Assembly: GCA_030265305.1 (NCBI GenBank) | Contig: JASAOG010000245.1 | Span: 169,822 to 233,821 of the forward strand | From: Biomphalaria pfeifferi | Taxonomy: Eukaryota | Reading direction: 5' to 3' | DNA length: 64,000 nucleotides | In this document: piece after piece, positions 3,335 through 61,640 of the stretch | Position numbering within the stretch: the first letter of the stretch is position 1 | How the letters are laid out: the number at the start of each line of letters is the position of its first letter | Notes under the pieces: model-generated | What the model was told of the DNA's origin: nothing | Database searches by the model: none | What the model saw: only the letters and a program-made list of their open reading frames with translations | Position numbers and translations under genes: made by a program

Positions 3335-3860
3335 TTATTTAACCTTGGTTAAGCCAATTATAGAATATGCATCCTCTGTTTGGGACCCTTCAACTTAAGA
3401 AAACTCAAGAAAACATTAAGAAACTGGAACAGACACAAAATAGAGCAGTGAGATTCATTACAAACAAACATTTGACTAGAGTAACACCTATAGTAAAATC
3501 ACTAAATTTAGAAAGCCTTCAGGACAGAAGACTCAAAAGTAATGTAGCAATTATACATAAAACACTGAACCATAATCTTCAAATACAATAACAAAATTTA
3601 TTAAAATACTCTGAAAGACACAAAGACAAAGGCACATTCCTTGTCCCCTATGCTAGGACAAATTTGTACAAATACTCCTTCTTCCCTAGTGCTATTAGAG
3701 CATGGAATGGGTTGCCTGAGCTAGCCAGGAAAACCAGTGACTTGGCAGAATTTAAGTCATTGGTTAATATGCATGACTAAATGCATGACGCGTAGGACGT
3801 AATCATCTTCGTTTTTGAAGTAACGTCTGTATTATATAAGATAAGAATAAGATAAAATAA
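3335..3860 (+). mobile_element. Non-LTR retrotransposon (LINE-A) 3' fragment ending in an (ATAAG)n tail
   Basis: Nearly identical to the 3' end of the reverse-transcriptase-bearing copy at 21355-21860. Encodes the ...RTNLYKYSFFPSAIRAWNGLPELA... C-terminus, followed by an ataag microsatellite. Confidence 0.8.
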
Positions 3861-7736: not shown

Positions 7737-9215
7737 AGGAGATTGAAAGACAGAAAGATTGAGACCGAAAGATTAAAAGATAGAAAGATTGAGACTAAAA
7801 GATTGAAAGACAGAAAGATTGAAAGACAGAAAGATTGAAAGACAGATTGAAAGACAGATTGAAAGACAGACAGATTGAGGGAAAGAAAGATTGAGACACA
7901 GAAATATTGAAAGACAAAAAGATTAAGACTGAAAGATTGAAAGGCAGAAAGATTGAAAGACAAATTGAAAGACAGAAAGATTGAAAGACATATTGAAAGA
8001 CAGAAAGATTGATAGACAGATTGAAAGACAGAAAGATTGAGACTGAAAGATTAAAAGACAGAAACATTGAGACTGAAAGATTGAAAGACAGAAAGATGGA
8101 GACTGAAAGATTGAAAACAGAAAGATTGAGGGAAAGAAAGATTGAGAGACAGAAATATTGAAAGACAAAGATTAAGACTGAAAGATTGAAAGAGAAAGAT
8201 TGAGACTGAAATATTGAAAGACAGAAAGATTGAGACTGAAAGATTGAAAGACAGAAAGATAAGGATTGAAATATTGAAAAACAGATTGAAAGACAGAAAG
8301 ATGGAGACTGAAAGATTGAAAGACAGAAAGATGGAGACTGAAAGATTGTAAGAAAGATTGAGAGACAGAAATACTGAAAGAAAAATTGAAAGACAGAAAG
8401 ATTGAAAGACAGAAAGATTGAAAAACAGAAAGATTGAAAGACAGATTGAAAGACAGATTGAAAGACAGAAAGATTAAAAGACAGAAAGATTAAAAAACAG
8501 AAGGTGAAAGACAGATTGAAAGAGAGATTGAAAGACAGATTGAAAGACAGAAAGATTGAAAGACAGAAAGATTGAAAGACAGAAAGATTGAAAGACAGAA
8601 AGATTGAGGGAAAGAAAGATTGAGAGACAGAAATATTGAAAGACAGAAAGATTGAGACTGAAAGATTGAAAGACAGAAAGATGGAAACTGAAAGATTGAA
8701 AGACAGAAAGATTGAGGGAAAGAAAGATTGAGAGACAGAAATATTGAAAGACAGAAAGATTGAGACTGAAAGATTGAAAGACAGAAAGATGGAAACTGAA
8801 AGATTGAAAGACAGAAAGATTGAGGGAAAGAAAGATTGAGAGACAGAAAGATTGGGAGACAAAAATATTGAGAGACAGAAAGATTGAGATACAGAAAGAA
8901 TACAAGACAGAAAGAATAGGAGACAGAAAGATTGAGAGAAAGAAAGATTTAAAAAATCAAGATTGTGAAAAAGAAAGATTGAGGGAAAGAAAGATTATGA
9001 AACAGAAAGATTGAGAGAAAGAAATTTTAGGGAAAGAAATATTGAGAGACAGAAAGATTGAGAAAAATTAAGATTGTGAAAAAAAAGATTGAGAGAAAGA
9101 AAGATTGAGAGAAAGAAAGATTGAGAGAAAGAAAGATTGAGATGCAGAAATTTTGAGAGAAAGAAAGATTGAGTGAAAGATTGTGAAAAAGAAAGATTGA
9201 GAGAGACAAAAACGT
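7737..9215. repeat. About 1.5 kb satellite of 10-12-bp purine-rich units (AGAAAGATTGA / GAAAGACAGAA)
   Basis: Hundreds of degenerate tandem units. The strand is strongly skewed: the plus strand is almost pure A/G plus T. ORFs 7795..8862 (355 aa), 7724..7963, 8474..8905, 8820..9014 and 9027..9209 are artefacts. Confidence 0.95.
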
Positions 9216-10379: not shown

Positions 10380-11345
10380 CTTGGAATTAGGTGACTGTAG
10401 TTTGCATTAGATTTGATATCGAAAAGGGAGATTTTATCGTCAAAATCATCTGTTGGGGGTTTAAAACTAAAAAATCTCTGGAGTTTTTTGGTTTTTTAAA
10501 ATTCAAAACCCCATTTAACTACGGTAATAGAATTTAGTAACTGTAGTTTGCTTTAGAATAATATTGAAGATATAGGTTTTCCATCTCAAAATGCTCTGTA
10601 GGGGGATCTTAAACTCAAAACCATCTGGAGGGGTTTTAAACTTTTAAAAAAGCCATCTGTAGGAGAGGGGTTTAAACTCAAACCCCCAACTGGATTGGCT
10701 ACGCTCAAATAATTTTAGTTTGTAATTTGCTTTTTTTATATTGAAGAGGTATTTTTTAGCATCAAAACCATCTGAAGGGGGGTTTAAACTCATTACCCCT
10801 TTTGGCAACGCTCGTAGTATATTGAGTGCGTAATTTGCTGTGTTTTTTTTTTACATTGAAAATGTGTTTTTTAGCTACAAACCCCGCAAGCGGGGAGTTT
10901 AAACTCAAAACCCCTTTGACTACACTCATAGAATTTTGAGTGTATAATTTGCTTTGTTTTTAGTATTAAAGAGGTATTTTTTTTACCTTAAAACCCCGCT
11001 GAAAAGGGGGGGGGGGGCATTAAACTCAAAACCCATTTACCTACGCTCATAACATTTTGAGTGCGTAATTCGTTTTTTTTTTATATTGAAAAGGGGGTTT
11101 ATCGTGAATTTTGGAGGGGGGTTAAAAATCAAAATCCTTAACTGTGCTCGTAAAATTTGGGGGATTGTCGTTTGCATTTTTTTTTTGTTTTGTGTTATAG
11201 AAGAGGAGAATTTAACTGCGAAAACCCCTGGTAGGGGGGGTTTTAAACTCAAACCCCCCTGGTAGGGGGTCTTAAACTCAAACCCCCCTGATAGGGGGTT
11301 TTAAACTTAACCCCCCCCCCCCCCGGTAGGGATTTTAAACTCAAA
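10380..11345. repeat. About 115-120-bp unit satellite, about 8 units, ending in 30-bp GGGGGTTTTAAACTCAAACCCCCCTGGTA sub-repeats
   Basis: Recurrent ...GTAATTTGCTTTGTTTTT...ATTGAAGAGGTATTTTTTAGC...GGGGGTTTAAACTCAAAACCCCTTTGACTACGCTCATAG blocks. ORF 11037..11252 is an artefact. Confidence 0.85.
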
Positions 11346-11709
11346 ACCTTGTTTGCTGTGCTAGGGCAAGTGACAGTTTAGTCTTAAAATCTCACCTAAA
11401 ATAAACAAAATCAAAGCAAAAAATCAGTCACTAAATTCCGATCCCCTTCCCCGCGGGGGGGGGGGGGGGGGAATTTCATTTCGGGGGAGGGGGGTTGAAC
11501 CCCCCCCCCCCCGGCTACGCCCATGATATCGGGTATCAGCAAAAACATCTCAACTCTAGTCAAATCTCGTCCAACCTAATGTACATCGGGATTTGAACCA
11601 CTTACCCCCAAGCCACGATTAATTAATAAACCCATAACCTCAGGACAGAGAACAAAGAAAATCGTTCATGAATATCAATGTCGTGCCCCAAATCCCTCTA
11701 TTCAATCAT

Positions 11710-11869: not shown

Positions 11870-12092
11870 GTCCAAGAACTCGGGCCTTGCGTTGTACACC
11901 ACGTGTCTCTGGCCAAGGTCGTGTAACAAGGTGACCACTTTGTCCTCGGAGTCCATTCTGGCCACCACTTTTTCCACCGCCCCCATCACTCTCAGCACGT
12001 GAGACCTTAGCGCAGTGCTGGCCCTGAGTTCTTCGGCTGTCTTGTCTCGGAAATCCATAAAGGTTCCTTTAACATCGGGGTCCTCCAGCAGT
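11870..12092 (-). CDS. Globin central exon (exon 2): B12.2 to G7.0, 223 bp, neuroglobin-like
   Basis: The minus-strand translation is (G)LLEDPDVKGTFMDFRDKTAEELRASTALRSHVLRVMGAVEKVVARMDSEDKVVTLLHDLGQRHVVYNARPEFLD. It shows the globin CD1 Phe (KGTFMDF), the distal His E7 (SHVLRVM) and the proximal His F8 (LGQRH). The exon is preceded by the acceptor ...ttttcag with a phase-2 intron and followed by the donor GAC|gtaagtata with a phase-0 intron. Its 223-bp length equals the canonical vertebrate globin exon 2. Confidence 0.85.
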
Positions 12093-12169
12093 CTGAAAAA
12101 CCAGTAAGAAAAAAATGCTTCAAAAGTGGGGGGTATACATTTATATTTAACTCTTACAACTGACAAATA

Positions 12170-12830
12170 AGCTTGGACAGAGGTCATGCTTTAATAACAT
12201 ACTATTGGAGAACCAGAAAAGTACCACACCAGAGCAGTAACACATCAGAAGAGTACCACAGCAGTACCACAACAGAGCAGTACCACACAGAGCAGTACCA
12301 AACCACACTTACATATGAGCTTGGACAGAGGTCATGCCTTAAAAACATACAATTGCAGAACCAGAAAAGTACCACGCAAGAGGAGTACCACATCAGAGAA
12401 GTACCGCAGCAGTATCACATCAGAGCAGTACGTACCACACAAGAACAGTTGCACACCAGAGAAGTACCAAACCACACCTACATATGAGCTAGGACAGAGC
12501 TCATGCCTTAATAACATACCAAGCAATACCAGAAAAGTACCACGATAGAACAGTATCACACCAAAGATGTACCATAGCAGTACAACATCGAAGCGGTACC
12601 ACACCAGAGCAGTACCATATCACAGCAATATCACATTGGAGCAGTACCGTGCCAGAAAATGACAACACCAGAGTATGACCACACCAGAGCAGTACCAGAA
12701 AAGTACCGCATCAAAGCAGAACCAGAGCAGTACCACACCAGAGCAGTACTAGAACAGTACCACACCATAGCATCATTAAAGCCGTACCACACCTAAGCAG
12801 TACCACGCCAATACCGAACCAATCCACATC
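12170..12830. repeat. Degenerate tandem repeat of CAGAGCAGTACCACAC units inside globin intron 1
   Basis: Repeated (gag)cagtaccaca units. ORFs 12173..12487, 12202..12393, 12315..12548 and 12332..12604 are artefacts. Confidence 0.8.
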
Positions 12831-13051
12831 GACACTTTGCTTCTAACACAAATGTTGATGAATCATTTATTTCTATTTTCAGTTCTTTCCAGCTCTTATC
12901 ACTGTAGACAACAACATGCTCTCGTGAAAGAGGCGCTTCATCCACTCAAAATGGTAGACCTTGGAAACTAATCATTATTTGTTCTCAATCCAAACCACAC
13001 TTTACCGCTGCATAGCATTCGATTATTCTTTCTCATCTTGAAAACTTTTAG

Positions 13052-13314
13052 CAGGGCCGGCCATAGGTAATTGGAGGCCCTTGGCGAAGCGCATAAGGAG
13101 GCCCGGCATTATATAATTGGAAACCCTAGGCGGATTGAATTTGGTGGCCCCCCAAATGAAATAGAAAAATTAAAAAATAAACAGCGAAAAAATAAAATTA
13201 CGCAACAATTTATTTAAAACCTCTAAAAAGATTGTTTTGAGTCCTGTGCGAGGCCCCCATCAATCGGAGGCCCTATACTGCTGCCTAGTTCGCCTATGCC
13301 AAAGGCCGGCCCTG
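13052..13314. mobile_element. hAT-like MITE, 263 bp, TIR CAGGGCCGGCC
   Basis: CAGGGCCGGCC at the left end and GGCCGGCCCTG at the right end. Flanks are CTTTTAG and CTCTTAG, matching 6 of 7. Same family as 23365-24029 and 55295-55944. Confidence 0.6.
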
Positions 13315-14408
13315 CTCTTAGCTGTATCGATGCAGTATCATTGTTAGCTTTTTTTTTTTTTAAATAAAGGATTCGCTTTTTTTTTTTCTTTAATTAAATC
13401 TGTTTAGAGTGTTTTACCCTTATTTGTTAAAAACTAAAACCAAGTAATGCTCTACTCCCTCCTTGCTACTCCGCCCATGGCAGGTCATCTGATAGTCCAG
13501 ACGACAATGGAAATCGAGCTAAACCCCTCTCTTTATGATATCAACGAGGAACTTTTTGCGCGGATTTATCTGCGGAAAGGATGACACGAAATAAAAACGC
13601 TTTCCTAAGTCAACAAATGTCACGGCTTGTAATTACCATCGTTACCCGGGTGTGATGTCATCGATACAAAATTGCCAAGTCAACACTAGTAAAAGGGGAG
13701 GGGGGGGGGAAGGGCTTATTGTTGTGTTGTATGGCTGAACAGTAAATTACCAATCAAAAACATTTACCAATGATAGCCAATAGAATTAGACAATTAAAAG
13801 GCATTCCAGGCTTTTACACGTAGAAAAATTGGCTGGTTACTATTTTTCTAATAGACCATTTGATGTCATATAAGGATTAGCTAAATCAGCGGTTCTCAAC
13901 CTTTTTTGTTCCGTAACCCCATAATATAATTTCCAACATGGCAGCGACCCTAGTGAATAGTTGTAAGAAAGGTGTATTTTTATGAAAATCTGCTTGAATA
14001 GTTGATTATAAAAATTAAATTTTTCGATTTCATAAAAGAAAAAAAGTAGACGTTGAAATGTCTAAAATATGATGTCAGATTTTCAATATCTTTTCTAGTT
14101 TACGAGATCTAAACGGGACGGACGGACGGACCGACAGACAGACCACACCCAAAAATATTCCCATTTATAAATATGACAATTTAAAAATATGACAATTTAC
14201 AAGCATGCGTACGTATAAACATGACAGTTTATAAACATGACAATCTATGAAACTTAGACATGTATACGAATGACAACATATAGGTGGCATAGGCCTAACA
14301 ATGGATAAACATGGCAGTGTATAAACATGGCCTATGTATTAACATCTCTATACAACTTATAAACAAGGCCGATTATAAACATGACAATTTATAAACATAA
14401 GTACATAC

Positions 14409-14650
14409 CCCATAAACATGACAACTCCAACTCGCTCGATGTCTTTCTTGATAATCTCCCATGAGGCCAAGATGATTTCTCTTGTCTCAGCGGTCAGCAC
14501 CGGCTTGACTTCCGGCACGCCTCGCATGGCGCCAGAGGACATCTCCTCGCCCTCCTGATTGCACAGGTACACCATCCTTGTGTTCTGATCCTTCATTTTC
14601 TCTGTCAGCCCTAACCTGTCCGTAATCTCTCTGGAACAGCTTAGACCCAT
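14409..14650 (-). CDS. Globin exon 1 (from the first true ATG through B12.2)
   Basis: The ATG at 14650-14648 sits in a perfect Kozak context, gtgACCATGGgt. The translation is MGLSCSREITDRLGLTEKMKDQNTRMVYLCNQEGEEMSSGAMRGVPEVKPVLTAETREIILASWEIIKKDIERVGVVMFMG. It contains an A/B-helix-like LTAETREIILASWEII...DIERVGVVMF. The donor GG|gtatgta at 14409/14408 is phase 2 and joins in frame to exon 2, giving GGA = Gly. The ORF-track start at 14680 is a GTG, not an ATG. An alternative start at the ATG at 14542 (MSSGAMRG...) cannot be excluded. Confidence 0.7.
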
Positions 14651-14686
14651 GGTCACTATAAGAGAGGTCAACAGCCGCACGAGAAA

Positions 14687-14925
14687 CTAGGTCATGGGTC
14701 AAATGCCGCACGATTATCCAGGTCAAGGGTCAAAGTCGACTCGATTAAACTAGGTCATGTGTCAAAGGATGGGCGGCTTGCTAGGTCAATGGATCTAATG
14801 CCACTCGTTTTATCTAGGTCATGTGCCAAAGGAGGCGCGATTTACTAGGTTAACGGTCAAATGCCAAACGATTACCTAGGTCATGGGTCAAATGCCGCCA
14901 CACGATTAAGTAGGTCACTGTAAAC
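14687..14925. promoter_or_regulatory. Eight tandem copies of a 31-32-bp unit, each carrying AGGTCAnGGGTCA (DR1-type nuclear-receptor half-site pairs), 37-275 bp upstream of the globin ATG
   Basis: Units start at 14687, 14718, 14750, 14781, 14814, 14845, 14876 and 14910. Examples are CTAGGTCATGGGTCAAATGCCGCACGATTA and CCAGGTCAAGGGTCAAAG. There is a GGGCGG box at 14771. Confidence 0.5.
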
Positions 14926-16034
14926 TTGTAAAATCGGGCAAGTTGTTTATTGAATGAACGTAATTTGTTATCTTTCTTTAACTTTCTAGATAATTATTGA
15001 TAGAAAAAATACTAGATCCAATATTTTGTTCACAAATCAGATACGAAATCGAAATATCCAGTCACCAGTCAGAAAATGCATTGTACCTCTGGGAGATAAA
15101 CAGACGACAGCTTTAATTTTACGACTTGGAATCACCAGTGAAAAGAATGACGAAAAGAACAATGAACGACATCTAGGCGGGAAAAAAAAACAACTGAAAT
15201 TATGAGATGTCGTAAAGTTTATACCAGCAGTCGTGGACAGGTTGTCACGTGAGAGGATGACGCGATCCCTTCAATTAGATGTCACCGAAGAACAACATTA
15301 CTGTGTCAACGAAGACAATCTTGGTCTTGCTTTTTTATTTGTCTTTTATTTAAAAAAACAGACATTTGTAATGGACATACAGGCGCTGAAGTCTTAGAAA
15401 TAAGATTAGCGGCTTGGGTAAAGTTGCTTATTTAGTTACATGACGTCTCTCTTTTGTGCTTGATAATCTTCTGCTAAAAGATATCCAGTTTAACCCCTTG
15501 AGCATTTTCGTACAGAATAAGTATTGAAATCCATGATCGAAAGCATAAAGGCACACATCTATATCTCTTAACTTGTCTGTAAGGGTTAATTCCCAACACG
15601 TCAGCTAAGACAAATACATCAAAGTGGTGAAGCTAATCTGGTCTTTTAGTTCACAGTCACTGAAGCATGTTTTGTTAACTCTTTGACTCCCACAAGCTGT
15701 ATGTGGACATCACAGCGCGATCTTTTCTCTCTGGATTATTTGAGACTCAAAGAGTTAACTGTTTTTATTTGTAGTATGGAGGACTCTGGCGTTGCTTCAT
15801 CTGAAATGTATGTTAAAATAATATGTTTCTATTAAAATGCAACAAAAATCCTTTCTCGCTCTGGCTCACAGATATACAGTCTATGCACCTGGTAGCTAGC
15901 TATATTTATACCTCTTCGACATATCTGTTTACAAATAGTATTATAAATGGCTGGACATTTAAATTTATTTTTATTTATAGCTCCTTAACTAGATACTAAT
16001 CTCCAATGAAAAGGTCTTGCAGATCTGATGGTTA

Positions 16035-16400
16035 CACTGTGTCTTCGAGTTTAGTGGGGCGTGGTAACTGTAAGTGGGCGTGGTCACTTAATAGTGGGGC
16101 GTGGTAGTTGTACAGTGGGCGTGGTCTCTCAATAGTGAGGCGTAGTAGCTGTACAGTGTGCGTGGTAGCCCTATAGTGGGGTGTTGTAACTGTACAGTGA
16201 GCGTAATAGCTCAATATTGGGACGTCGTAGCTGCACTGAGCGTGGTAGCTCAATAGTCGGGCTAGGTACAGTGGGCGTGAAGCACAAAACTGGGGCGTTG
16301 TAGCTGCAAGTGGGCGTGGAAGCTTTATAATTGGGCGTGGTGGTTGTACATTCTGCGTGGTAGCTCAATAGTAGAAGATGTTAGCTGTGCAGGGGCCTCT
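16035..16400. repeat. About 22-bp minisatellite (GTGGGGCGTGGTAGCTGTACA variants), about 16 units
   Basis: Direct reading. ORFs 16032..16253 and 16171..16368 are artefacts. Confidence 0.85.
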
Positions 16401-16504
16401 TAGCTATAAAGACCTAGGACGTAATTATCTTGACTTTTGAATGAACGTCTGTAATTTATAACACAAGTAGGGCCTTGCGTCAGTATAGTGGGGCGTGGTA
16501 GCAT

Positions 16505-16656
16505 ACATCAGGGCAGGGGTTCTCAACCTGTGGATCGCGACCCCTTTGGGGATCGAACGATGATTTGCGAGGGGTCGCCTAAGACCAACGGAAAATTGAT
16601 TTTTTTTTTTTGGAAGGAAGGGGGGGGGGTATTTTTCATCGGAAGTTTTTTTTTCA

Positions 16657-16725
<69 letters not shown>

Positions 16726-16735
16726 GCGTGTTGCA
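16505..16735. repeat. MITE-like fragment (GGTTCTCAACCTGTGGATCGCGACCCCTTTGGGGATCGAACG...GGGGTCGCCTAAGACCAACGG), followed by poly-T, poly-G, (TG)n and (TC)n
   Basis: Carries the recurrent GGTTCTCAAC TIR-type motif, then simple repeats. ORFs 16425..16739 and 16488..16787 are artefacts. Confidence 0.6.
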
Positions 16736-17291
16736 ACAAGAATGTTTATGCTGTAGTCGATATACATTTATATTTGAAATGCCGTAGGATTAGGAGATTC
16801 TTCAGATTTACATTATTAGTAAACAGATTATGAAACGATCCTCAAGTATCAATTAAATTAAAAAGTGGAAATAACAAAGATATATCTAAGGACACGGACC
16901 TATAGCCAGGGGATACGAATGACACTTTAAGTGACTGTATCATCATTGAACAGACACGTGACTTTTTGTTGGTAGTTAGTTACTTTTTTCTTTTTTTTTT
17001 AATATACTTGTTATTCAAAAATATTTGTTGTAGACCACATCTTCGTTGTTGCAGAAAACTTTTTCCACACCTGAAATTACTGTCCAACAAATGCGTCGTA
17101 ACGCCATTGCGGGATGAAACATTTCTAGGGAGAAGATCTAGTAACGTCGAGAAGAAAATTGAACACTAACTAAATCACATTTACCTAAGCCAATGAAAGA
17201 AAAAAAAAATTGGTTGGGAGTCGTCGCTTAGTGAAAAATCGTATTAAGGGATCGCGGAGTTAAAGAGGCTGAGAACCGCTGCATTAGGGCG

Positions 17292-18380
17292 ATGTACTGT
17301 ACTGTGGGCGTGGTCATTGGCTTTGCAACCATGGCTCGAAGGGGTTCATTTAGCCGGCACCTTCGACATAGAGGTCACGATTTCTCCCGTGCTAGTGGTT
17401 TGAAATGTAATATAAATAAATCCTCAGTAATGGGACTAGGGAAATGGACATTGAAAGAGAATTGTGGTATTGTCTATACCTGTAACCCTTTGTTCTATTG
17501 TAAAGAACGGTGGGAGAATATTTTTGTCAAAGCCTCAAACTTGATTAAACTTTATCAGCACACAGGTTCTACGATATTTGGTAGAGCTGTATTGATAAAT
17601 AAATTGGTCATCCCAAAGATTGTCTATTTAGCTAACATTACAGAGCCACCTCCTAACTTCATAAACAAGCTGAACAAGTTAATTAGATGCTTTATATTTA
17701 AAAACACTATTAGGAGCATTAAGCACACTACACTCATTCAAAACAAAGAGGATGGGGGGGATAAACTGGCAAGATGTTAAAATAAAAATACATTCGCTAA
17801 GGCTAAAATTTGTAGGTCAAGTAGTTAGAAACCCAACAAACTTTCCCTTGAAAATTTACTATTATGGTTTAAGATTAAGTAGTCTTCTTCCAATACATAA
17901 TGACTCTTCACTATTTTGGTACAGTCACTCTTCCATTTTACAGATCTATCTTAAGAATTTTACCTGGTAATGAACATTTAATACACAACAAAACCAAAGA
18001 GTCATACACAACACTCAAAAAGCTGTTACATGAAAGTCTAGTGAATAGGATTAAGAGGGGGAGAGCTCTTGGGGTGTCTGAATTCGAGGACACATTCATA
18101 AACCTACACAGCAGACATATCACATAAAAAAGCTAAAGAGATAACTTATAGACTTATCTTTGGGATGACCCCTATGGTTAAAAAACGGGCAAATGACCGT
18201 GAATGTAAATTATGTCATCTTGAAAATGCTGATAACGAGAAACATATGTATTTGGAATGTCCATTATTCCTTAAAGTTAAAAGTACTGTAAGTGACTTAT
18301 TAGAAGCTAACTGTGGCAACTATGTGAATGTTAACTTGTCTATTGTTTTAAGCAAGCTGCCAAAACTAAAAAAATAAAAT
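17292..18380 (+). mobile_element. Non-LTR retrotransposon 3' ORF2 remnant, frameshifted, with a C-terminal CCHC zinc knuckle
   Basis: Four consecutive plus-strand ORFs in shifting frames. The last, MTPMVKKRANDRECKLCHLENADNEKHMYLECPLF, has a C-x2-C-x12-H-x4-C pattern typical of the C-terminal Zn-finger of LINE ORF2. Confidence 0.5.
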
Positions 18381-20159: not shown

Positions 20160-21860
20160 ATATTTTATTTTTTTTACATAACATAATACATAATGATAAT
20201 GAAACTAAAGCAAACATCCTAAACAAATACTTTGCATCAGCATTCTCAGCCCCAGGAGACAAAGACATATTACTGAATTTGAACCAAGTAGACAACATAG
20301 AAGATATAGTAGTACAAGAAAATGGAATTCAAAAACTATTAGCCAACACCAAACCAAATAAAGCGTCTGGACCTGATGGTATTCCAGCTAGATTACTCAA
20401 AGAACTCAGCAATGAGCTAGTCCCAGTGTTCAAAATACTCTTTCAGGCTTCACTTAACCAGGGCAGAGTACCAAAGGACTGGAAAGAAGCTAATGTCACC
20501 CCCCCCCCCTATTTAAAAAAGGAGAAAAATCTGACCCAGGAAACTACAGACCAGCATCACTTACCAGCATCACATGAAAAATCCTAGAACACATAATATG
20601 TAGCAACATCATAAACCCCTTAGACAAACAAAATGTCCTCACACCATACCAACATGGCTTTAGGAAATATAGATCATGTGATCATGTGAAACACAACTAA
20701 GAGGACTAATTGATGATTTTTCTAAAGGTTTAGATAATAGTGAACAAATAGATGCTATCTTACTAGATTTTTCTAAGGCTTTTGACAAAGTTCACCACCA
20801 TAGTTTGCTTTAAAATATGTCGGCATTAATGGTCCACTGCATCAGTGGATTAAAGATTTTCTGATAGGGAGAGAACAAACTGTAATAATAAATGGCTTTA
20901 AATCAACACCGATAACAGTAAACTCAGGTGTACATCAAGGAACAGTCTTAGGTCCACTACTATTTTTAATTTACATAAATGATTTACCAAATTGCATTAC
21001 TCCAGGAACAAAAGTCAGATTATTTGCAGACGATTGCATAATATATAGAACAATAAAAACAACACAAGGCACAGATATTTTACAAAGAGAATTAGATGAA
21101 TTACAGAAATGGGAATCAAATTGGAGCATGTCTTTCCACCCAGAAAAATGTCAATTGTTAAGAGTAACTTATCTTATTCATGGCAAACCAGTAACACAGA
21201 CTAAAAACGCAAAATACCTAGATGTTATAATAAATGAAAAACTGTCATGGAATCCACATATTGATGAAACTATAAAAAAATCAAACAAAGCATTAGGATT
21301 TATTCACAGAAATTTCTATAAATCAAATAAGAACATAAAACTAAAATGTTATTTAACCTTGGTTAGGCCAATAATAGAATATGCATCGTCCTTTTGGGAC
21401 CCCTCACCTCAAGAAAACATTAAGAAACTGGAACAGACACAAAATAGAGCAGTGAGATTCATAACAAATGAATATTCACATTTGACTAGAGTAACACCTA
21501 TAGTAAAATCACTAAATTTAGAAAGCCTTCAGGAAAGAAGACTCAAAAGTAAAGTAGCAATTATACATAAAACACTGAACCATAATCTTCAAATACAAAA
21601 ACAAAATTTAATTAAATACTCTGAAAGACACAAAGAAAAAGGCACATTCCTCGTCCCATATGCTAGGACAAATTTGTACAAATACTCCTTCTTCCCTAGT
21701 GCTATTAGAGCATGGAATGGGTTGCCTGAGCTAGCCAGGAAAACCAGTGATTTGGCAGAATTTAAGTTATTGGTTAATATGCAAGACTAAATGCATGACG
21801 CGTAGGACGTAATCATCTTCTTTTTTGAAGTAACGTCAGTATTATATAAGATAAGATAAG
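20160..21860 (+). mobile_element. LINE-A non-LTR retrotransposon, reverse-transcriptase region plus 3' end, decayed by frameshifts and stops
   Basis: ORF 20075..20587 carries the RT domain-0 motif KASGPDGIPARLLKE and is followed by GNYRPISL. LFADDCIIY, the F/YADD RT motif, lies near 21030. ORF 21128..21790 ends with ...RTNLYKYSFFPSAIRAWNGLPELA. The element terminates in an (ATAAG)n tail at about 21860. Confidence 0.8.
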
Positions 21861-21984
21861 ATAAGACCATCCTGGCGTAAAAAAAAGTGTTAAAACCCAC
21901 ATGGTCTGTCTAGACTTTACGATATTTGTGGAGCGTCTACTACAGGGGTTCTCAACCTGTGGGTCGTGTTCAAACTTTAACAAG

Positions 21985-30693: not shown

Positions 30694-33309
30694 ATGGCAA
30701 ACTACAGAGTCAGCCGGTTTGACAACGAGGATGGAAGCAGAAATGTCGACCGCAATGATGGCGCCATTTTTAGAATTCCTCCGCACTACTTTATTCACGT
30801 GCTGGATCAGAACACCAACGTGACGCGGACAGAAGTAGGACCAAAGACATTCATCCGCCAGGATCACCAGCGCGTTACCCGTGGCCCGGAGCAGATGGTG
30901 ATTGTCCCACCGAGGCATTACTGCGCCATCGAGAACCCTGTATGCAGAGACAAGGACGGAAACTTGATTATAGATTCAATCGGGCAGATCAAGCTTCAGC
31001 ATGCTGAGCTGGAGATTCGTCTTGCACAGGATCCCTTTCCCTTACATCCTGGAGAGGTTCTCAAGCTGCCTGTTCAAACATTGCACGTGGTGCCAGCGAA
31101 CTCCGCTCTAAAGATTCGCGCCATCCTTGACTTCACTGATGAAGATGGTCGTCGATGGTCAGCGGGGGATACTTGGTTGTTTGAAGGACCTGGCACTTAT
31201 ATCCCAAAGAAAGAAACGCTTGTTGAAGAGACGATCCAGGCGGTGGTCATTGGACCCAACCAAGCCCTGCGTCTTACAGCCAAGCTGCAATGTCTGGACA
31301 GAGACGGACATTCAAGGGTGTCAGGGGAGGAGTGGATGGTCAAGAAGACCGGTGCATACCTGCCAGGTGTATTCGAAGAAGTGGTGAGCATCGTTAACCC
31401 CTACGTTCTGACTGAATCCATTGGTCTCCACATCAGGGCAATTAAAACATTCAAAGACGACTTTGGAATTGAAAGAAAAAACGGCCAAGAATGGCTGATC
31501 ACTTTCAAAGACTCCGAATCTCATATACCAGGAGTCTACGAAGAGGTACTGGGGGTTATAAATATAACTACGCTGACCAACAGACAGTACTGTGTTATAT
31601 TGAACCCAGTAGGCGACGATGGAAAGCCGCAGTTGGGTCAGAAGAAGCTTGTCAGAGGAGAAAAATCTTTTTTTCTGATGCCAGGCGAAGCCTTGGAGAA
31701 AGGCATACAAAGCGTGTACATCCTTAGCGAAGAAGAAGGACTGGTCCTTAACGCAACGGAACATTTTAAAGACGGTGCTGTGATGAGAAGTCCTGGAGTT
31801 AAATGGATGATCAGAGGTCCAACGGAGTATGTGCCCCCTGTTGAGGTCGAAGTAGTCTTTAAAAGACGTGCGATTCCTTTGGATGAGAATGAAGGAATAT
31901 ATGTCAGGGACGTCAAATCTGGGAAGGTCAGGGCCGTGATTGGCTCCACCTACATGATCAAAGAGGATGAAGAGCTTTGGGAGAAGGATCTCCCTGAGAC
32001 TGTAGAAACCTTAATAACACGAGGTACTGATCCTCTGGCCGACAGGGGAGTGAGGGGGTTAAATGAAGCGAAGACCAAACCGAGAGACAAAACGCGAGTA
32101 GTTACATATCGCGTGCCACACAATGCAGCGGTTCAAATCTATGATTACAAAGCCAAAATGTCCAGGGTGGTCTATGGCCCTGAGCAGGTCATGCTTGGAC
32201 CAGACGAGCAGTTTACTGTCCTGAGTCTCTCTGGGGGCAAACCAAAGAAGAATCACGCCATCAAAGCTCTGTGCCTTCTTTTGGGACCTGACTTTGCTAC
32301 GGATGTTATCACCGTGGAAACAGCTGACCACGCCAGACTCTCAATTCAATTATCCTACAACTGGCATTTCGATGTCGTAGACAAATCACCGGAGGAATCG
32401 GCTAAGCTATTTAACGTTCCAGACTTTGTGGGGGACTCGTGCAAGGCTATAGCCTCTAGGGTACGTGGCGCTGTAGCTCAAGTCTCCTTTGATGATTTTC
32501 ATAAGAATTCAGCGAAGATCATCAGGGCATCAGTGTTTGGGATGGTTGATGGCAAGGTGGTGACAACTATACGTTTCCCACAGAACAATCTTGTCATCAC
32601 CAATGTTGATGTTCAATCTGTCGAGCCTGTGGACCAGCGTACCAGAGACTCGCTTCAAAAGTCTGTACAGCTCGCTATTGAAATTACCACCAATTCACAA
32701 GAAGCAGCTGCTCGACACGAAGCCGACCGCCTTGAGCAGGAAGCTAGAGGACGCCTGGAGCGCCAAAAGATTTTGGACGAAGCCGAAGCCGAGAAAGCCA
32801 GAAGAGAGCTCTTGGAGTTGCAGGCCAATAGCGCTGCGGTGGAGAGCGCTGGCCAAGCCAAAGCCGAGGCGCAGAGCCGCGCAGAAGCGTCGAGGATTGA
32901 AGGAGAGGCTGCTGTGCAACAAGCGAAATTAAAATCACAGGCTTCGGCGATTGAATCCGAATCCGAACTGCAACGCCTTACTCTGGCGAGGAACGCGGAG
33001 CTTGCATACGTTAAAGACAAAAATCGAATGGATCTCGACAAGAATGCGGAGCTCTCAAACATTGAAGTCAATAAATTCCGCAATATGGTGGACTCCATCG
33101 GAAGCAACACTCTGCTGGCCATGGCCACCGCAGGGCCTGATTTGCAGGTAAGAATGCTGCAGGCTCTTGGCCTGAAGTCCACACTTATAACAGACGGCTC
33201 GTCTCCCATCAACCTGTTCAACACAGCTAGCGGGCTTATTGGCGATGTTGTGCCTGCTAAACGGAGGAGACTGGACACCCCAGACAACGAGGAAGATGAA
33301 AATGTTTAA
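30694..33309 (+). CDS. MVP: Major vault protein (MVP), 871 aa, single uninterrupted coding exon
   Basis: Collinear with MVP over its full length: ...[33 protein letters not shown]...VPPRHYC...[18 protein letters not shown]...[14 protein letters not shown]...[34 protein letters not shown]...[28 protein letters not shown]...[19 protein letters not shown]...[25 protein letters not shown]...[23 protein letters not shown]...[72 protein letters not shown]...[21 protein letters not shown]. The start is in a Kozak context, gacgACCATGGca. The stop is TAA at 33307-33309. Confidence 0.93.
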
Positions 33310-44104: not shown

Positions 44105-45385
44105 TCCACGTGTTAACCACAATGAAATTTCAACCACATGTTAGCAACAATGAAATTTCAACCACATGTTAGAAACAATGAAATTTCAACCACATGTTAG
44201 CAACAATGAAATTACAACAACGTGTTAACCACAATGAAATTTCAACCACAAGTTAGCAACAATGAAATTTCAACCACATGTTAGAAACAAGGAAATTTCA
44301 ACCACATGTTAGCAACAATGAAATTTCAACAACGTGTTAACCACAATGAAATTTCAACCACATGTTAGCAACAATTAAATTTCAACCACATGATAGCAAA
44401 AATGAAATTTCAACCACATGTTAGCAACAATGAAATTTCAACCACATGTTAGCAACAATGAAATTTCAACCACATGATAGCAACAATTAAATTTCAACCA
44501 CATGATAGCAAAAATGAAATTTCAACCACATGTTAGCAACAATGAAATTTCAACCACATGTTAGCAACAATGAAATTTCAACCACATGATAGCAACAATG
44601 AAATTTCAACCACATGATAGCAACAATGAAATTTCAACCACATGTTAGCAACAATGAAATTTCAACCACATGTTAGCAACAATGAAATTTCAACCACATG
44701 TTAGCACCAATGAAATTTCAACAACGTGTTAACCACAATGAAATTTCAACCACATGTTAGCAACAATGAAATTTCAACCACATGATAGCAACAATGAAAT
44801 TTCAACCACATGTTAGCAACAATGAAATTTCAACCACATGTTAGCACCAATGAAATTTCAACAACGTGTTAACCACAATGAAATTTCAACCACATGTTAG
44901 CAACAATGAAATTTCAACCACATGATAGCACCAATGAAATTTCCACAACGTGTTAACCACAATGAAATTTCAACCACATGTTAGCACCAATGAAATTTCA
45001 ACAACGTGTTAACCACAATGAAATTTCAACCACATGTTAGCAACAATGAAATTTCAACCACATGATAGCAACAATGAAATTTCAACCACTTGTTAGCAAC
45101 AATGAAATTTCAACCACATGATAGCAACAATGAAATTTCAACAACGTGTTAACCACAATGAAATTTCAACCACATGTTAGCAACAATGAAATTTCAACCA
45201 CATGTTAGCAACAATGAAATTTCAACCACATGTTAGCACCAATGAAATTTCAACAACGTGTTAACCACAATGAAATTTCAACCACATGTTAGCAACAATG
45301 AAATTTCAACCACATGATAGCAACAATGAAATTTCAACCACATGTTAGCACCAATGAAATTTCAACCACATTTTAGCCACATTGT
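44105..45385. repeat. 29-bp satellite (TTCAACCACATGTTAGCAACAATGAAATT), about 44 contiguous units; degenerate longer-unit relatives at 43730-44100
   Basis: Contiguous head-to-tail units with no unique sequence between them. Minor variants are CAACGTGTTAACCAC and CACATGATAGCA. Confidence 0.95.
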
Positions 45386-49029: not shown

Positions 49030-49545
49030 TTCAGTTCCTCTTTAATAAACGCTTTAGTTCCTCTTTAATAAACGCTTTAGTTCCTCTTTAATAAACGCTT
49101 TAGCTCCTCTTTAATAAACGCTTTTGTTCCTCTTTAATAAACGCTTTAGCTCCTCTTTAATAAGCGATTTAGTTCCTCTTTAATAAGCGCTTTAGTTCCT
49201 CTTTAATAAACGCTTTAGTTCCTCTTTAATAAGCGCTTTAGTTCCTCTTTAATAAGCGCTTTAGTTCCTCTTTAATAAGCACTTTAGTTCCTCTTTTAAA
49301 AACGCTTTAGTTCCGCTTAAATAAACGCTTTAGTTCTTCTTTAATAAACGCTTTAGTTCCTTTTTAATAAGCGCTTTAGTTCCTCTTTAATAAGCGTTTT
49401 AGTTCTTCTTTAATAAACGCTTTAGTTCCTTTTTAATAAGCGCTTTAGTTCCTTTTTAATAAGCGTTTTAGTTCTTCTTTAATAAGCGCTTTAGTTCCTC
49501 TTTAATAAACGCTTTAGTTCTTCTTTAATAAACGCTCTGTTTCCT
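49030..49545. repeat. 23-bp minisatellite (TTCCTCTTTAATAAACGCTTTAG), about 22 units
   Basis: Contiguous units with point variants such as AAGCGCTTTAG and AAACGCTTTTG. Confidence 0.95.
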
Positions 49546-60744: not shown

Positions 60745-61640
60745 TACATGTGACAAAAGTCAGATTATGTGCAGACGATTGCATAATATATAGAACAATA
60801 AAAACAATACAAGACACAGAAATTTTACAAAGAGAATTAGATGAATTACAGAAATGGGAATCAAATTGGAGCATGTCTTTCCACCCAGAAAAATGTCAGT
60901 TTTTAAGAGTAACAAAAAACTAAAACAAATTAATTCCCCTTATCTTATTCATGGTAAACCAGTAACACAGGCTAAAAACGCAAAATACCTAGGTGTTATA
61001 ATAAATGAAAAACTGTCATGGAATCCACATATTGATGAAACTATAAAAAAAAATCAAACAAAGCATTAGGATTTATTAAAAGAAATTTCTATAAATCAAA
61101 TAAGAACATAAAACTAAAATGTTATTTATCCTTGGTTAGGCCAATATAAAACATGTATTCTCCGTTTGGGACCCCCAAACTCAAGAAAACATTAGAGACT
61201 GGATCAGACACAAAATAGAGCAGTGAGATTCATAACAGACGAATATTCACATTTGACTAGAGTAACACCTTTAGTAAAATCATTAAATTTAGAAAGCCTT
61301 CTGGATAGAAGACTTAAAAGTAAAGTAGCAAATTATAAATTTATAAATAAAACACTGAACCATAATCTTCAAATACAAAATCAAATAAAAATACTCAGAA
61401 AGTTACAAAGATAAAGGCACATTCCTCGTCCCATATACTAGGACAAATTTGTACAAATGCTCCTTCTTCCCTAGCGCTATTGGAGCATGGAATGGGTTGC
61501 CTGAACTAGCCTTAAAAACCAGTGACTTTGCGGAGTTTAGGTCATTTGTTAATATGCATGACTAAATGCATGACGCGTAGGACGTAATCATCTTCTTTTT
61601 TGAAGGTCCGTATTATATAAGATAAGATACGATTAGGTAT
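60745..61640 (+). mobile_element. LINE-A 3' copy, about 0.9 kb, frameshifted
   Basis: Collinear with 21010-21860 (...FADDCIIYRTIKT...MGIKLEHVFPPRKM...) and ends in ATAAGATA simple repeats. ORFs 60854..61069 and 61223..61414 are remnants. Confidence 0.85.

Follow-up and report, generated by a model that had tools for sequence, protein, structure and literature searches.

Directly before the start codon of a globin gene in Biomphalaria pfeifferi lies a tandem array whose units carry hexads resembling nuclear-receptor half-sites. This raises the question of whether the array acts as a selected, multimerised response element, as a sequence-only reading had proposed, or is a minisatellite in which such sites were multiplied along with everything else. 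We analysed the array within the whole 64-kb stretch of DNA around it (the window). With about even confidence, we regard it as a copy-variable minisatellite of the Biomphalaria lineage, the proximal units of which probably act as promoter or leader of the gene and may bind receptors.

The globin gene is encoded on the minus strand, and two of its coding exons are contained in the window; exon 3 is located approximately 1.1 kb outside, past the window start.

14409..14650, minus strand: globin coding exon 1, with the ATG at 14650, an N-terminal acylation motif (MGLSCS...), and the donor GG/GTATGT
11870..12092, minus strand: globin coding exon 2, encoding residues 81-155

The protein sequence derived from exons 1 and 2 is 100% identical to a Biomphalaria protein named 'neuroglobin' and matches the Pfam family Globin; the predicted product is an N-terminally acylated, membrane-anchored, neuroglobin-like (globin-X-like) globin. 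Eight gastropod orthologues begin with MG(L/Q/T)(S/T)CS, and the ATG at 14650 is therefore taken as the true start. Its context, GTGACCATGG, is a strong Kozak-type context (A at -3, G at +4), although calling it perfect, as had been done, goes too far. The window also carries an MVP open reading frame that is 100% identical to a B. pfeifferi protein.

The minisatellite spans 14651-14925 (minus strand) and comprises eight diverged head-to-tail units of 31-34 bp, the last of which ends at the globin ATG. TRF detected a period of 31 at 14666-14767 and 14838-14917 and a period of 64 at 14685-14892 (matches of 75-77%), and a manual split yielded a 15-nt leading partial unit, seven full units (34, 31, 31, 33, 31, 32, and 31 nt), and a degenerate terminal unit running into the ATG. 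Both approaches agree on a tandem array where the sequence-only reading had placed it, and the distances given there (37 to 275 bp from the ATG, which is at 14650 on the minus strand) were correct, as was the GGGCGG box in one unit, which occurs a single time at 14771-14776 (plus strand). Hand-aligned units share a mean column identity of 62%, and their 31-bp consensus is GTTAATCGTGCGGCATTTGACCCATGACCTA. From distal to proximal, the array is composed as follows.

14911..14925, minus strand: leading partial unit, GTTTACAGTGACCTA; its only AGGTCA-type hexad is AGGTCA at 14912-14917 (plus strand)
14877..14910, minus strand: unit a, 34 nt, -260 to -227; consensus DR1 AGGTCATGGGTCA at 14878-14890 (plus strand)
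14846..14876, minus strand: unit b, 31 nt; two degenerate hexads (TGACCG-T-TAACCT), five substitutions relative to B. glabrata
14815..14845, minus strand: unit c, 31 nt; AGGTCA retained, second hexad gone (TGGCAC); opens the 159-bp five-unit block
14782..14814, minus strand: unit d, 33 nt; AGGTCA retained (GGCC in B. glabrata), second hexad gone (AGATCC)
14751..14781, minus strand: unit e, 31 nt, -131 to -101; contains the GGGCGG box and the near-DR1 AGGTCATGTGTCA
14719..14750, minus strand: unit f, 32 nt, -100 to -69; consensus DR1 AGGTCAAGGGTCA at 14720-14732 (plus strand), the same in all four haplotypes
14688..14718, minus strand: unit g, 31 nt, -68 to -38; consensus DR1 at 14689-14701 (plus strand), the same in all four haplotypes
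14651..14687, minus strand: unit h, degenerate terminal unit, GTTTCTCGTGCGGCTGTTGACC followed by TCTCTTATAG and TGACC; AGGTCA at 14665-14670 (plus strand)

Unit h additionally holds a possible 3' splice site (ctctcttatag/TGACC) and the Kozak-type context of the ATG. An origin of the array from a duplicated start-codon region was considered, with each unit containing TGACCCATG and the start reading TGACCATGG, and was set aside, as the in-register likeness reaches only about 5 nt past unit h. Head-to-tail repetition of units of about 10-100 bp, the hallmark of minisatellites and VNTRs, applies to the array. It is one of 25 tandem arrays in the 64-kb window, which together make up 10.5% of its length, so that the closeness of one to a start codon is nothing out of the ordinary in this stretch; a minisatellite of at least 100 bp is touched by 16% of random 300-bp intervals.

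Two RGKTCA hexads separated by a 1-nt spacer, which define a DR1, are found in units a, f, and g and in none of the other five. The claim that every unit contains AGGTCA-n-GGGTCA is thus false; a true DR1 arrangement exists in three of the eight units, and eight DR1 pairs were not found. The pattern RGKTCAnRGKTCA has no matches in the 64-kb window other than these three (0.14 expected), comprising TGACCCATGACCT at 14689 and 14878 and TGACCCTTGACCT at 14720; the remaining units differ by one to four changes. If up to two mismatches are allowed in the 13-mer, seven matches compare with 0.94 expected, with the reservation that the copies are not statistically independent because all of them descend from one duplicated unit. 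The AGGTCA hexad is retained in seven of the eight units, four times with a WAWNT 5' extension, and GGGTCA in three of the seven full units.

We further applied the 18-bp PPARalpha/RXRalpha consensus WAWVT-RGGBBA-H-RGKTYA, which was derived with mammalian proteins (PMC4524655). One perfect and three one-mismatch (17/18) matches were obtained in the window (0.61 expected), all of them inside the array. The perfect match (18/18) is AAACT AGGTCA T GGGTCA at 14684-14701, i.e., unit g plus its 5' extension, and the chance probability of such a match, computed from the degeneracy of the consensus, is roughly 2e-5 per 131-bp region. Unit a is one mismatch off the consensus in B. pfeifferi and perfect in B. 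glabrata, which thus has two perfect matches; the gene-proximal matches are conserved in all haplotypes. For the HNF4-specific motif CAAAGTCCA (PMC3384313), no exact match was found in the array and a single site with one mismatch is located in unit f (CAAAGTCGA), and the count across the window was at expectation (19 vs. 19.6). Regarding the architecture of the sites, the DR1s face the strand opposite to the globin gene, and at -34 to -51, one element stands very near the ATG for an upstream activating site. The spacer is T in two of the three consensus DR1s, unlike the A-spacer element at which strong RXRalpha binding without PPARalpha occurred (PMC4524655). Candidate binding proteins are encoded by Biomphalaria, namely HNF4, RXR, COUP-TF, and two PPARs; BgRXR binds a DR1 probe, and both B. 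glabrata PPARs have the human P-box (PMC4388693).

Comparison with three B. glabrata genomes revealed that the array occupies the same site in both species and that its units correspond one-to-one, whereas its copy number varies. Eight units are present in B. pfeifferi and in the B. glabrata reference (7.9), 13 in strain iBS90 (12.9; GCA_025434165.1), and 18 in strain iM (17.9; GCA_025434175.2), which is a VNTR in the strict sense of copy number differing between strains at one locus. The strains differ by carrying one, two, or three copies of the five-unit 159-bp block, which is duplicated in iBS90 (159-bp period, 2.3-fold) and triplicated in iM (3.3-fold at 94%). Such gain and loss of blocks is what unequal exchange or replication slippage characteristically produces. 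The number of consensus DR1s hardly follows the number of units, with three in 8 units, three in 13 (iBS90), and four in 18 (iM); the five extra units of iBS90 add none and the ten extra units of iM add one. All four haplotypes, one of B. pfeifferi and three of B. glabrata, share the DR1s of units a, f, and g.

Sequence identity between B. pfeifferi and the B. glabrata reference is graded along the locus, amounting to 99.2% for the four proximal units, 94% for the distal units (92% counting gaps), and 88% for the flank just upstream of the array (77% counting gaps). Over four haplotypes of two species, the region from -131 to -1 (units e-h) has one variable column of 131, an A/G difference at -121 in unit e. 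This is less than at adjacent third-codon positions (5/80 variable; p = 0.03) and much less than in the flank directly beyond the distal end of the array (p = 6e-5), but not significantly different from the first 358 bp of intron 1 (12/342 columns variable; p = 0.12) or from pooled neighbouring neutral-like sites (p = 0.09). The conservation signal of the proximal units is therefore only moderate. An intronic tandem array at 14151-14253 is likewise 97-98% conserved. Within the upstream array, three of eight interspecies substitutions fall into half-site positions (3.1 expected), i.e., half-sites are not spared relative to spacers; as the constraint extends over spacers and half-sites alike, it gives no specific indication of nuclear receptors. 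The distal units drift at about the neutral rate. A selected module should have most units intact and its sites spared, and only three of the eight units are intact. Two further properties were examined and discarded as explanations: the region from -131 to -1 folds no better than shuffled sequences (z = +1.23), with no Rfam match in 12000-18000, and the CpG observed/expected ratio of the array (0.91) is not distinctive against its flanks (0.56-1.28), so that neither a structured RNA nor a CpG island is indicated.

Beyond Biomphalaria, four gastropods (Lymnaea, Aplysia, Candidula, and one more) lack such an array before the start codon of the orthologue. In the first three, not a single AGGTCA occurs within the 1.5 kb preceding this ATG, and in the fourth, 633 bp of upstream sequence contained neither an array nor a PPRE-consensus match. 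Copies of the unit outside the orthologous arrays were absent from 126 kb of Biomphalaria sequence, and no inverted repeats flank the array. In metagenome contigs, a periodic TGACCTA pattern occurred at at least 120 loci; among the matches listed, these were unrelated, with a likeness to the unit of at most 12-17 nt and E-values of at least 0.47.

Relative to the transcription start, the array may lie in a promoter, a leader, or a 5' intron. Every retrieved globin gene model starts at the ATG, and none of the searched collections contained a spliced mRNA contig of the Biomphalaria globin (Logan contigs P0011 and P0012 comprise exon 2 only). It is conceivable, though we consider it rather unlikely, that transcription of the gene begins beyond the array, which would place the array within a 5'-UTR intron or within the leader. 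Branch point, polypyrimidine tract, acceptor, and leader sequence would in this case make up the conserved proximal part; such a position fits a neutral as well as an enhancer role of the array. An acceptor-like sequence, ctctcttatag/TGACCATGG, ends 5 nt before the ATG and is the same in all four haplotypes, and in Lymnaea, Aplysia, and Candidula, too, the ATG is preceded by TAG-ended, acceptor-like sequences. Four upstream ATGs on the sense strand, each ATGACCTAG, speak against a long unspliced leader that runs through the array. Moreover, the RefSeq entries XP_055878640.1 and XP_055878641.1 are identical in globin sequence, which under the conventions of RefSeq denotes transcript variants differing outside the CDS, and a conserved block approximately 570 bp upstream contains a TATAAA (15218-15223) and a CACGTG (15246-15251). 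However, a strong consensus donor (GTAAGT or GTGAGT) is missing between this TATA and the array, the searched collections contain no transcript contig of the globin gene, and the 130 conserved bp exceed what splice signals require.

A similarly doubtful alternative is that the array is a purely neutral minisatellite, in which the likeness to receptor sites is an incidental legacy of a single duplicated unit and the proximal units are nearly invariant because divergence beside an exon is locally low. The abundance of arrays in the window (10.5%; 16% of 300-bp intervals touched) agrees with this explanation, and so do the lack of a DR1 in most units, the variation of copy number (8/13/18) without conservation of site number, the absence of the array outside Biomphalaria, the unspared half-site positions, and a conservation of the proximal units that does not significantly exceed that of the first 358 bp of intron 1 (p = 0.12), an intron which has a 97-98% conserved array of its own. 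It accounts less well for a single variable site in 131 bp, below both third-codon positions (p = 0.03) and the distal flank (p = 6e-5), for a perfect 18-bp PPRE match shared by all haplotypes although chance would yield one with a probability of only about 2e-5 in a region of 131 bp, and for units that have remained individually recognisable, with none lost, since before the species split. At the other extreme, the sequence-only reading took the whole array as a selected multimerised DR1 element exerting strong nuclear-receptor control over the globin, which we consider improbable. All consensus DR1s and all PPRE-consensus matches of the 64-kb window do lie inside the array, AGGTCA persists in 7/8 units, the receptors are encoded and BgRXR binds DR1 (PMC4388693), and the CRBPII promoter offers a natural tandem half-site precedent (PMC2248703). 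Yet only 3/8 units have the consensus, 5 and 10 extra units contribute zero and one DR1, the distal units evolve near the neutral rate, and the array is neither conserved outside the genus nor constant in copy number. Least probable is an origin of the array as a piece of a dispersed repeat or transposable element inserted before the globin gene. Repeats make up about 40% of Biomphalaria genomes (PMC10875847) and the window contains other dispersed repeats, but 126 kb of Biomphalaria sequence show the unit nowhere except in the orthologous arrays, inverted repeats are lacking, and two species share the array at one position, each unit with its counterpart.

We return to a lineage-specific minisatellite with potentially functional proximal units. 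The founding unit would have contained, or itself been, a DR1/PPRE-type half-site pair that was multiplied by duplication. Distal units would since have decayed at a roughly neutral rate, leaving DR1s in units a, f, and g, and the proximal units (-131 to -1) would now most probably constitute the proximal promoter or leader of the globin gene, with the distal, copy-variable part as a tolerated spacer. Judging from the motifs, DR1-type receptors (RXR homodimer, PPAR-RXR, HNF4, or COUP-TF) might bind unit g (-51) and unit f (-82), and perhaps unit e (-114) together with its GC box; we hold this tentatively, at somewhat less than even confidence. The notion of the whole array as an eight-fold selected response element is not supported, and the suggested link of globin expression to hypoxia or metabolic state is pure speculation.

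A bolder proposal would treat the array as a copy-number-tunable receptor rheostat. PPAR/RXR- or HNF4-type receptors would bind intact and near-intact units, and the 8/13/18 alleles of the B. glabrata strains would set the level or the ligand sensitivity (retinoids, fatty acids, organotins) of expression of the membrane-bound globin. We think this has a small chance of being correct; if true, it would mean a heritable cis-regulatory polymorphism in the oxygen or ROS handling of a disease vector. iBS90 and iM are B. glabrata lines used in schistosome-compatibility genetics. The 8/13/18-unit polymorphism provides a natural allelic series and a PCR marker for asking whether the length of a promoter-proximal minisatellite influences expression. 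If functional, the two or three conserved proximal DR1/PPRE-like sites would be among only a handful of concrete cis-elements put forward for nuclear-receptor signalling in molluscs, in a medically important genus whose BgRXR is already known to bind DR1 and retinoids. If the sites are non-functional, the locus would illustrate that motif-rich arrays beside start codons are to be expected in a repeat-rich genome, and that comparative evidence is needed before a response element is called.

Promoter-proximal VNTRs are known from other genes, such as the human INS VNTR and the VNTR upstream of MAOA. The array resembles them in its head-to-tail units of tens of bp at the 5' end of a gene, its polymorphic copy number, its exchange of multi-unit blocks, and its transcription factor-like motifs. 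It differs from them in that its units are old, diverged (62%), and in one-to-one correspondence between species, so that it represents a largely fossilised array, built with a 159-bp higher-order block, as opposed to one that mutates fast.

With respect to the half-sites, the closest natural counterpart is the rat CRBPII promoter, which contains four tandem AG(G/T)TCA hexads with 1-nt spacing (PMC2248703), so that the earlier remark on a multimerised response element being unusual in a natural promoter was overstated. Both share more than two directly repeated receptor hexads and DR1 spacing in a natural promoter setting; however, the CRBPII hexads are contiguous, with a 7-bp period over about 30 bp, whereas the DR1 pairs of the array are embedded in 31-bp units with an unrelated spacer of about 18 bp, and most of them are degenerate. 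To the PPRE consensus (PMC4524655), the element at 14684-14701 corresponds at 18 of 18 positions, in an orientation opposite to the gene. The synthetic multimerised retinoic-acid-responsive cassettes of PMC13277393 are similar in placing tandem, regular receptor sites before a start site; these engineered multimers consist of identical intact sites, whereas five of the eight units of the array are broken and its intact sites do not increase in step with its units. The decayed array is for the most part an ordinary minisatellite, in which perhaps two or three receptor sites beside the gene are still usable.

On the minus strand, a head-to-tail array runs from 14925 to 14651 and ends at the ATG of a globin gene (14650). 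Tandem Repeats Finder (TRF) described it with a period of 31 at 14666-14767 and 14838-14917 and a period of 64 at 14685-14892 (75-77% matches). Units were delimited by cutting after each TGACCTA-type hexad and are labelled a (the most distal full unit) to h (at the ATG); their consensus is GTTAATCGTGCGGCATTTGACCCATGACCTA, with a mean column identity of 62%. An earlier sequence-only reading had the coordinates, unit size and unit count right.

Units of the array and adjacent globin exons
Leading partial unit, minus strand: 15 nt, distal end of the array
Full units a to g, minus strand: 34, 31, 31, 33, 31, 32 and 31 nt, respectively
Unit h, minus strand: 37 nt, degenerate, terminal, running into the start codon
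14409-14650, minus strand: globin coding exon 1, 242 nt, opened by the ATG
11870-12092, minus strand: globin exon 2

The product of exons 1 and 2 is 100% identical to Biomphalaria proteins named neuroglobin or neuroglobin-like and matches Pfam Globin. Orthologues of 197-198 aa were found in Lymnaea, Aplysia, Candidula, Arion, Elysia and Bradybaena; because the gastropod orthologues all start with MG(L/Q/T)(S/T)CS, the ATG at 14650 is the real start. In the window, the N-terminus reads MGLSCS (14636-14650, minus strand), with the Gly2 and Cys5 common to the other gastropod orthologues examined. The Gly2/Cys pattern has been described as N-terminal myristoylation plus palmitoylation in globin X and X-like globins (PMC7771090), and the MGLSCS start would fit such a modification, as in these membrane-bound proteins. 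GenBank labels the Biomphalaria gene "partial" since exon 3 lies 13.6 kb beyond exon 2 in B. glabrata, by synteny about 1.1 kb past window position 1. Infection or exposure to niclosamide is reported to lower the level of "neuroglobin-like" transcripts, not tied to the window globin, in B. pfeifferi (PMC5685644, PMC6936870). Regarding other genes, an uninterrupted 871-aa ORF at 30694-33309 (plus strand) encodes a complete major vault protein (MVP) with Vault repeats and shoulder domain. Its sequence agrees 100% with "major vault 1 [B. pfeifferi]", but identity to other gastropod MVPs, one of them from B. glabrata, reaches only about 76-77%; the ORF looks like an intronless paralogue. The MVP-like genes of Lymnaea and Aplysia lie on contigs of 1,323,273 and 911,853 bp, sizes equal to those of the globin-orthologue contigs, which suggests conserved globin-MVP synteny.

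The sequence-only reading had assigned AGGTCA-n-GGGTCA, a DR1 (two nuclear-receptor hexads in direct repeat with a 1-nt spacer), to every unit, whereas a consensus DR1 is kept in only three of the eight. The exact 13-mer TGACCCATGACCT is found twice, in units a and g, and TGACCCTTGACCT once, in unit f; the other units differ from the 13-mer by 1-4 changes. The AGGTCA hexad is retained in 7/8 units, the GGGTCA hexad in 3/7 full units. We scanned the 64-kb window with the standard degenerate DR1 (RGKTCAnRGKTCA; three matches vs. 0.14 expected) and with WAWVT-RGGBBA-H-RGKTYA, the experimentally optimised mammalian PPARalpha/RXRalpha element (PMC4524655; one perfect match at 14684-14701, 34-51 nt 5' of the ATG, and three with one mismatch, vs. 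0.61 expected for the four); all matches lie inside the array, whose copies, being derived from a single duplicated unit, are not statistically independent. No HNF4-specific motif as given in PMC3384313 is present, and the GGGCGG box noted earlier is present in unit e (14771-14776). The resemblance to receptor motifs is thus real, and for three or four units it is good. B. glabrata nuclear receptors include HNF4, RXR, COUP-TF, two PPARs with the human P-box, E75 and Rev-erb, and binding to a DR1 probe is known both for BgRXR homodimers and for its heterodimers with mammalian partners (PMC4388693). As classical DR1s are bound by HNF4, RXR and COUP-TF alike (PMC3384313), receptor binding to the candidate array sites is plausible.

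The window was compared with its orthologous locus in three assemblies of B. glabrata: the reference GCA_947242115.1 (locus L008), GCA_025434165.1 (strain iBS90, L001) and GCA_025434175.2 (strain iM, L136; strains from PMC10875847). Non-coding divergence from the window was roughly 7-11%; L008 and L001, the pair compared directly, are roughly 4-12% apart, depending on the segment. All three assemblies carry the array at the same place, with each of units a-h recognisable.

Array size in B. glabrata
Reference: 8 units (7.9 copies by TRF)
iBS90: 13 units (12.9 copies; 159-bp period x 2.3 at 91%)
iM: 18 units (17.9 copies; 159-bp period x 3.3 at 94%)

The arrays differ in carrying the five-unit block c-d-e-f-g once, twice or three times. 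Such gain or loss of blocks is minisatellite behaviour, presumably via unequal exchange or slippage of the higher-order block. The 8-, 13- and 18-unit arrays contain three, three and four consensus DR1s, so the extra units contribute almost no intact sites. Orthologous units are about 95-100% identical and paralogous units about 62%, which makes the array much older than the species split and shows that it is not undergoing homogenisation.

Within 1.5 kb 5' of the orthologous ATG in Lymnaea stagnalis, Aplysia californica and Candidula unifasciata, we found no AGGTCA hexad, DR1, match to the PPAR response element (PPRE) consensus or alignable similarity. Lymnaea, the one of the three scanned for tandem repeats, has no comparable array beside the ATG, and 633 bp from a fourth gastropod (Logan contigs carrying the globin orthologue P0013) contain neither a tandem array nor a PPRE-consensus match. 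Absence from these four gastropods indicates that the array is a planorbid or Biomphalaria-lineage acquisition, not ancestral to the globin's regulation. The array is an old minisatellite, specific to the lineage and variable in copy number, that sits at the 5' boundary of globin coding exon 1.

Tandem repeats are common in this DNA. The window holds 25 distinct arrays (10.5% of its length), 16% of 300-bp intervals placed at random overlap a minisatellite of 100 bp or more, and Biomphalaria genomes are about 40% repetitive (PMC10875847); given these frequencies, an array abutting a start codon is unremarkable here, and its uncommon aspect is the quality of the receptor-site match. Other large minisatellites lie at 44106-45381 (28 bp x 45.6 at 90%), 7740-9172 (16 bp x 94), 49033-49536 (23 bp x 22) and 16052-16372 (41 bp x 8, about 1.4 kb 5' of the globin). 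Globin intron 1 contains nested 16/27/148/168-bp repeats (12159-12805). Intron 2 carries many short palindromic motifs of the form GGGGGTTTTGAGTTTAAAACCCCC between poly-G/poly-C runs (10400-11360; TRF periods 29 and 114), which may represent a hairpin-forming or MITE-like family. Furthermore, a dispersed element of about 300 bp has three copies in the window (3544-3853, 21554-21862 and 61341-61634); it is also found in globin intron 1 of B. glabrata (L001 11590-11872, L008 11573-11865), is missing at the orthologous window site, and is thus a species-polymorphic insertion.

The gene-proximal and distal halves of the array differ in conservation.

Sequence identity, B. pfeifferi vs. the B. glabrata reference (with gaps counted)
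Proximal units e-h (-131 to -1 from the ATG): 99.2% (99.2%)
Exon 1: 98.8% (98.8%)
Distal units a-d: 94% (92%)
160 bp immediately 5' of the array: 88% (77%)

Among four haplotypes, the proximal units vary in 1/131 columns, exon 1 in 5/242, every one at a third codon position, and the initial 358 bp of intron 1 in 12/342 ungapped columns. Variability of the proximal array is below that of adjacent third-codon positions (p = 0.03) and far below that of the flank beyond the distal end of the array (p = 6e-5); it is not significantly lower than at the beginning of intron 1 (p = 0.12) or at pooled neighbouring neutral-like sites (p = 0.09), and an intronic tandem array (14151-14253) is likewise 97-98% conserved. 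These comparisons offer moderate evidence for constraint on the four proximal units and none for the distal ones. The constraint is not half-site-specific, since half-site positions take three of the eight interspecies substitutions (3.1 expected) and proximal spacers are as invariant as hexads in the four haplotypes. Purifying selection probably acts on the four proximal units in a role as proximal promoter or leader. More tentatively, DR1-type receptors may bind the candidate sites in units g and f, perhaps e, and could thereby contribute to globin expression. That the array is wholly neutral is a serious, if less probable, alternative. An origin as a dispersed repeat is unlikely, as no further unit copy occurs in 126 kb of Biomphalaria DNA and flanking inverted repeats are absent around the array. 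That the whole array was selected as an eight-fold response module, or acts as a copy-number rheostat, is also unlikely.

All retrieved gene models start at the ATG, and no transcript contig for the globin gene was found in the collections searched. Promoter, leader and 5' intron are all possible positions for the array. Transcription may start farther upstream, with splicing onto the ATG exon: unit h ends in ctctcttatag followed by TGACCATGG, a plausible 3' splice site identical in the four haplotypes, and four upstream ATGs (-234, -172, -108 and -45) lie on its sense strand, each in ATGACCTAG (Met-Thr-stop), mini-ORFs that would be unexpected in a leader without splicing. Transcription of the array as leader would turn them into four upstream start-stop elements. 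RefSeq also holds two protein accessions with identical globin sequence, which by its convention implies transcript variants differing in untranslated regions. However, no strong donor site was seen between the array and the TATAAA (15218-15223) and CACGTG E-box (15246-15251), which lie inside a conserved block about 570 bp 5' of the ATG. Blocks at 15200-15700 (minus strand; 550-1050 bp 5' of the ATG), with a CRE-like GACGTCA near 15440, are 97-100% identical between B. pfeifferi and B. glabrata and mark candidate positions of the real core promoter or of a non-coding exon upstream.

The array belongs with promoter-proximal VNTRs, and in practice it is useful chiefly because the alleles of 8, 13 and 18 units form a series that can serve as natural experiment and marker. 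Although a multimerised element had been called unusual in a natural promoter, the CRBPII promoter, where tandem DR1 hexads occur naturally, is a precedent (PMC2248703). Unlike CRBPII, the array has 18-bp unrelated spacers and putative sites that are mostly broken.
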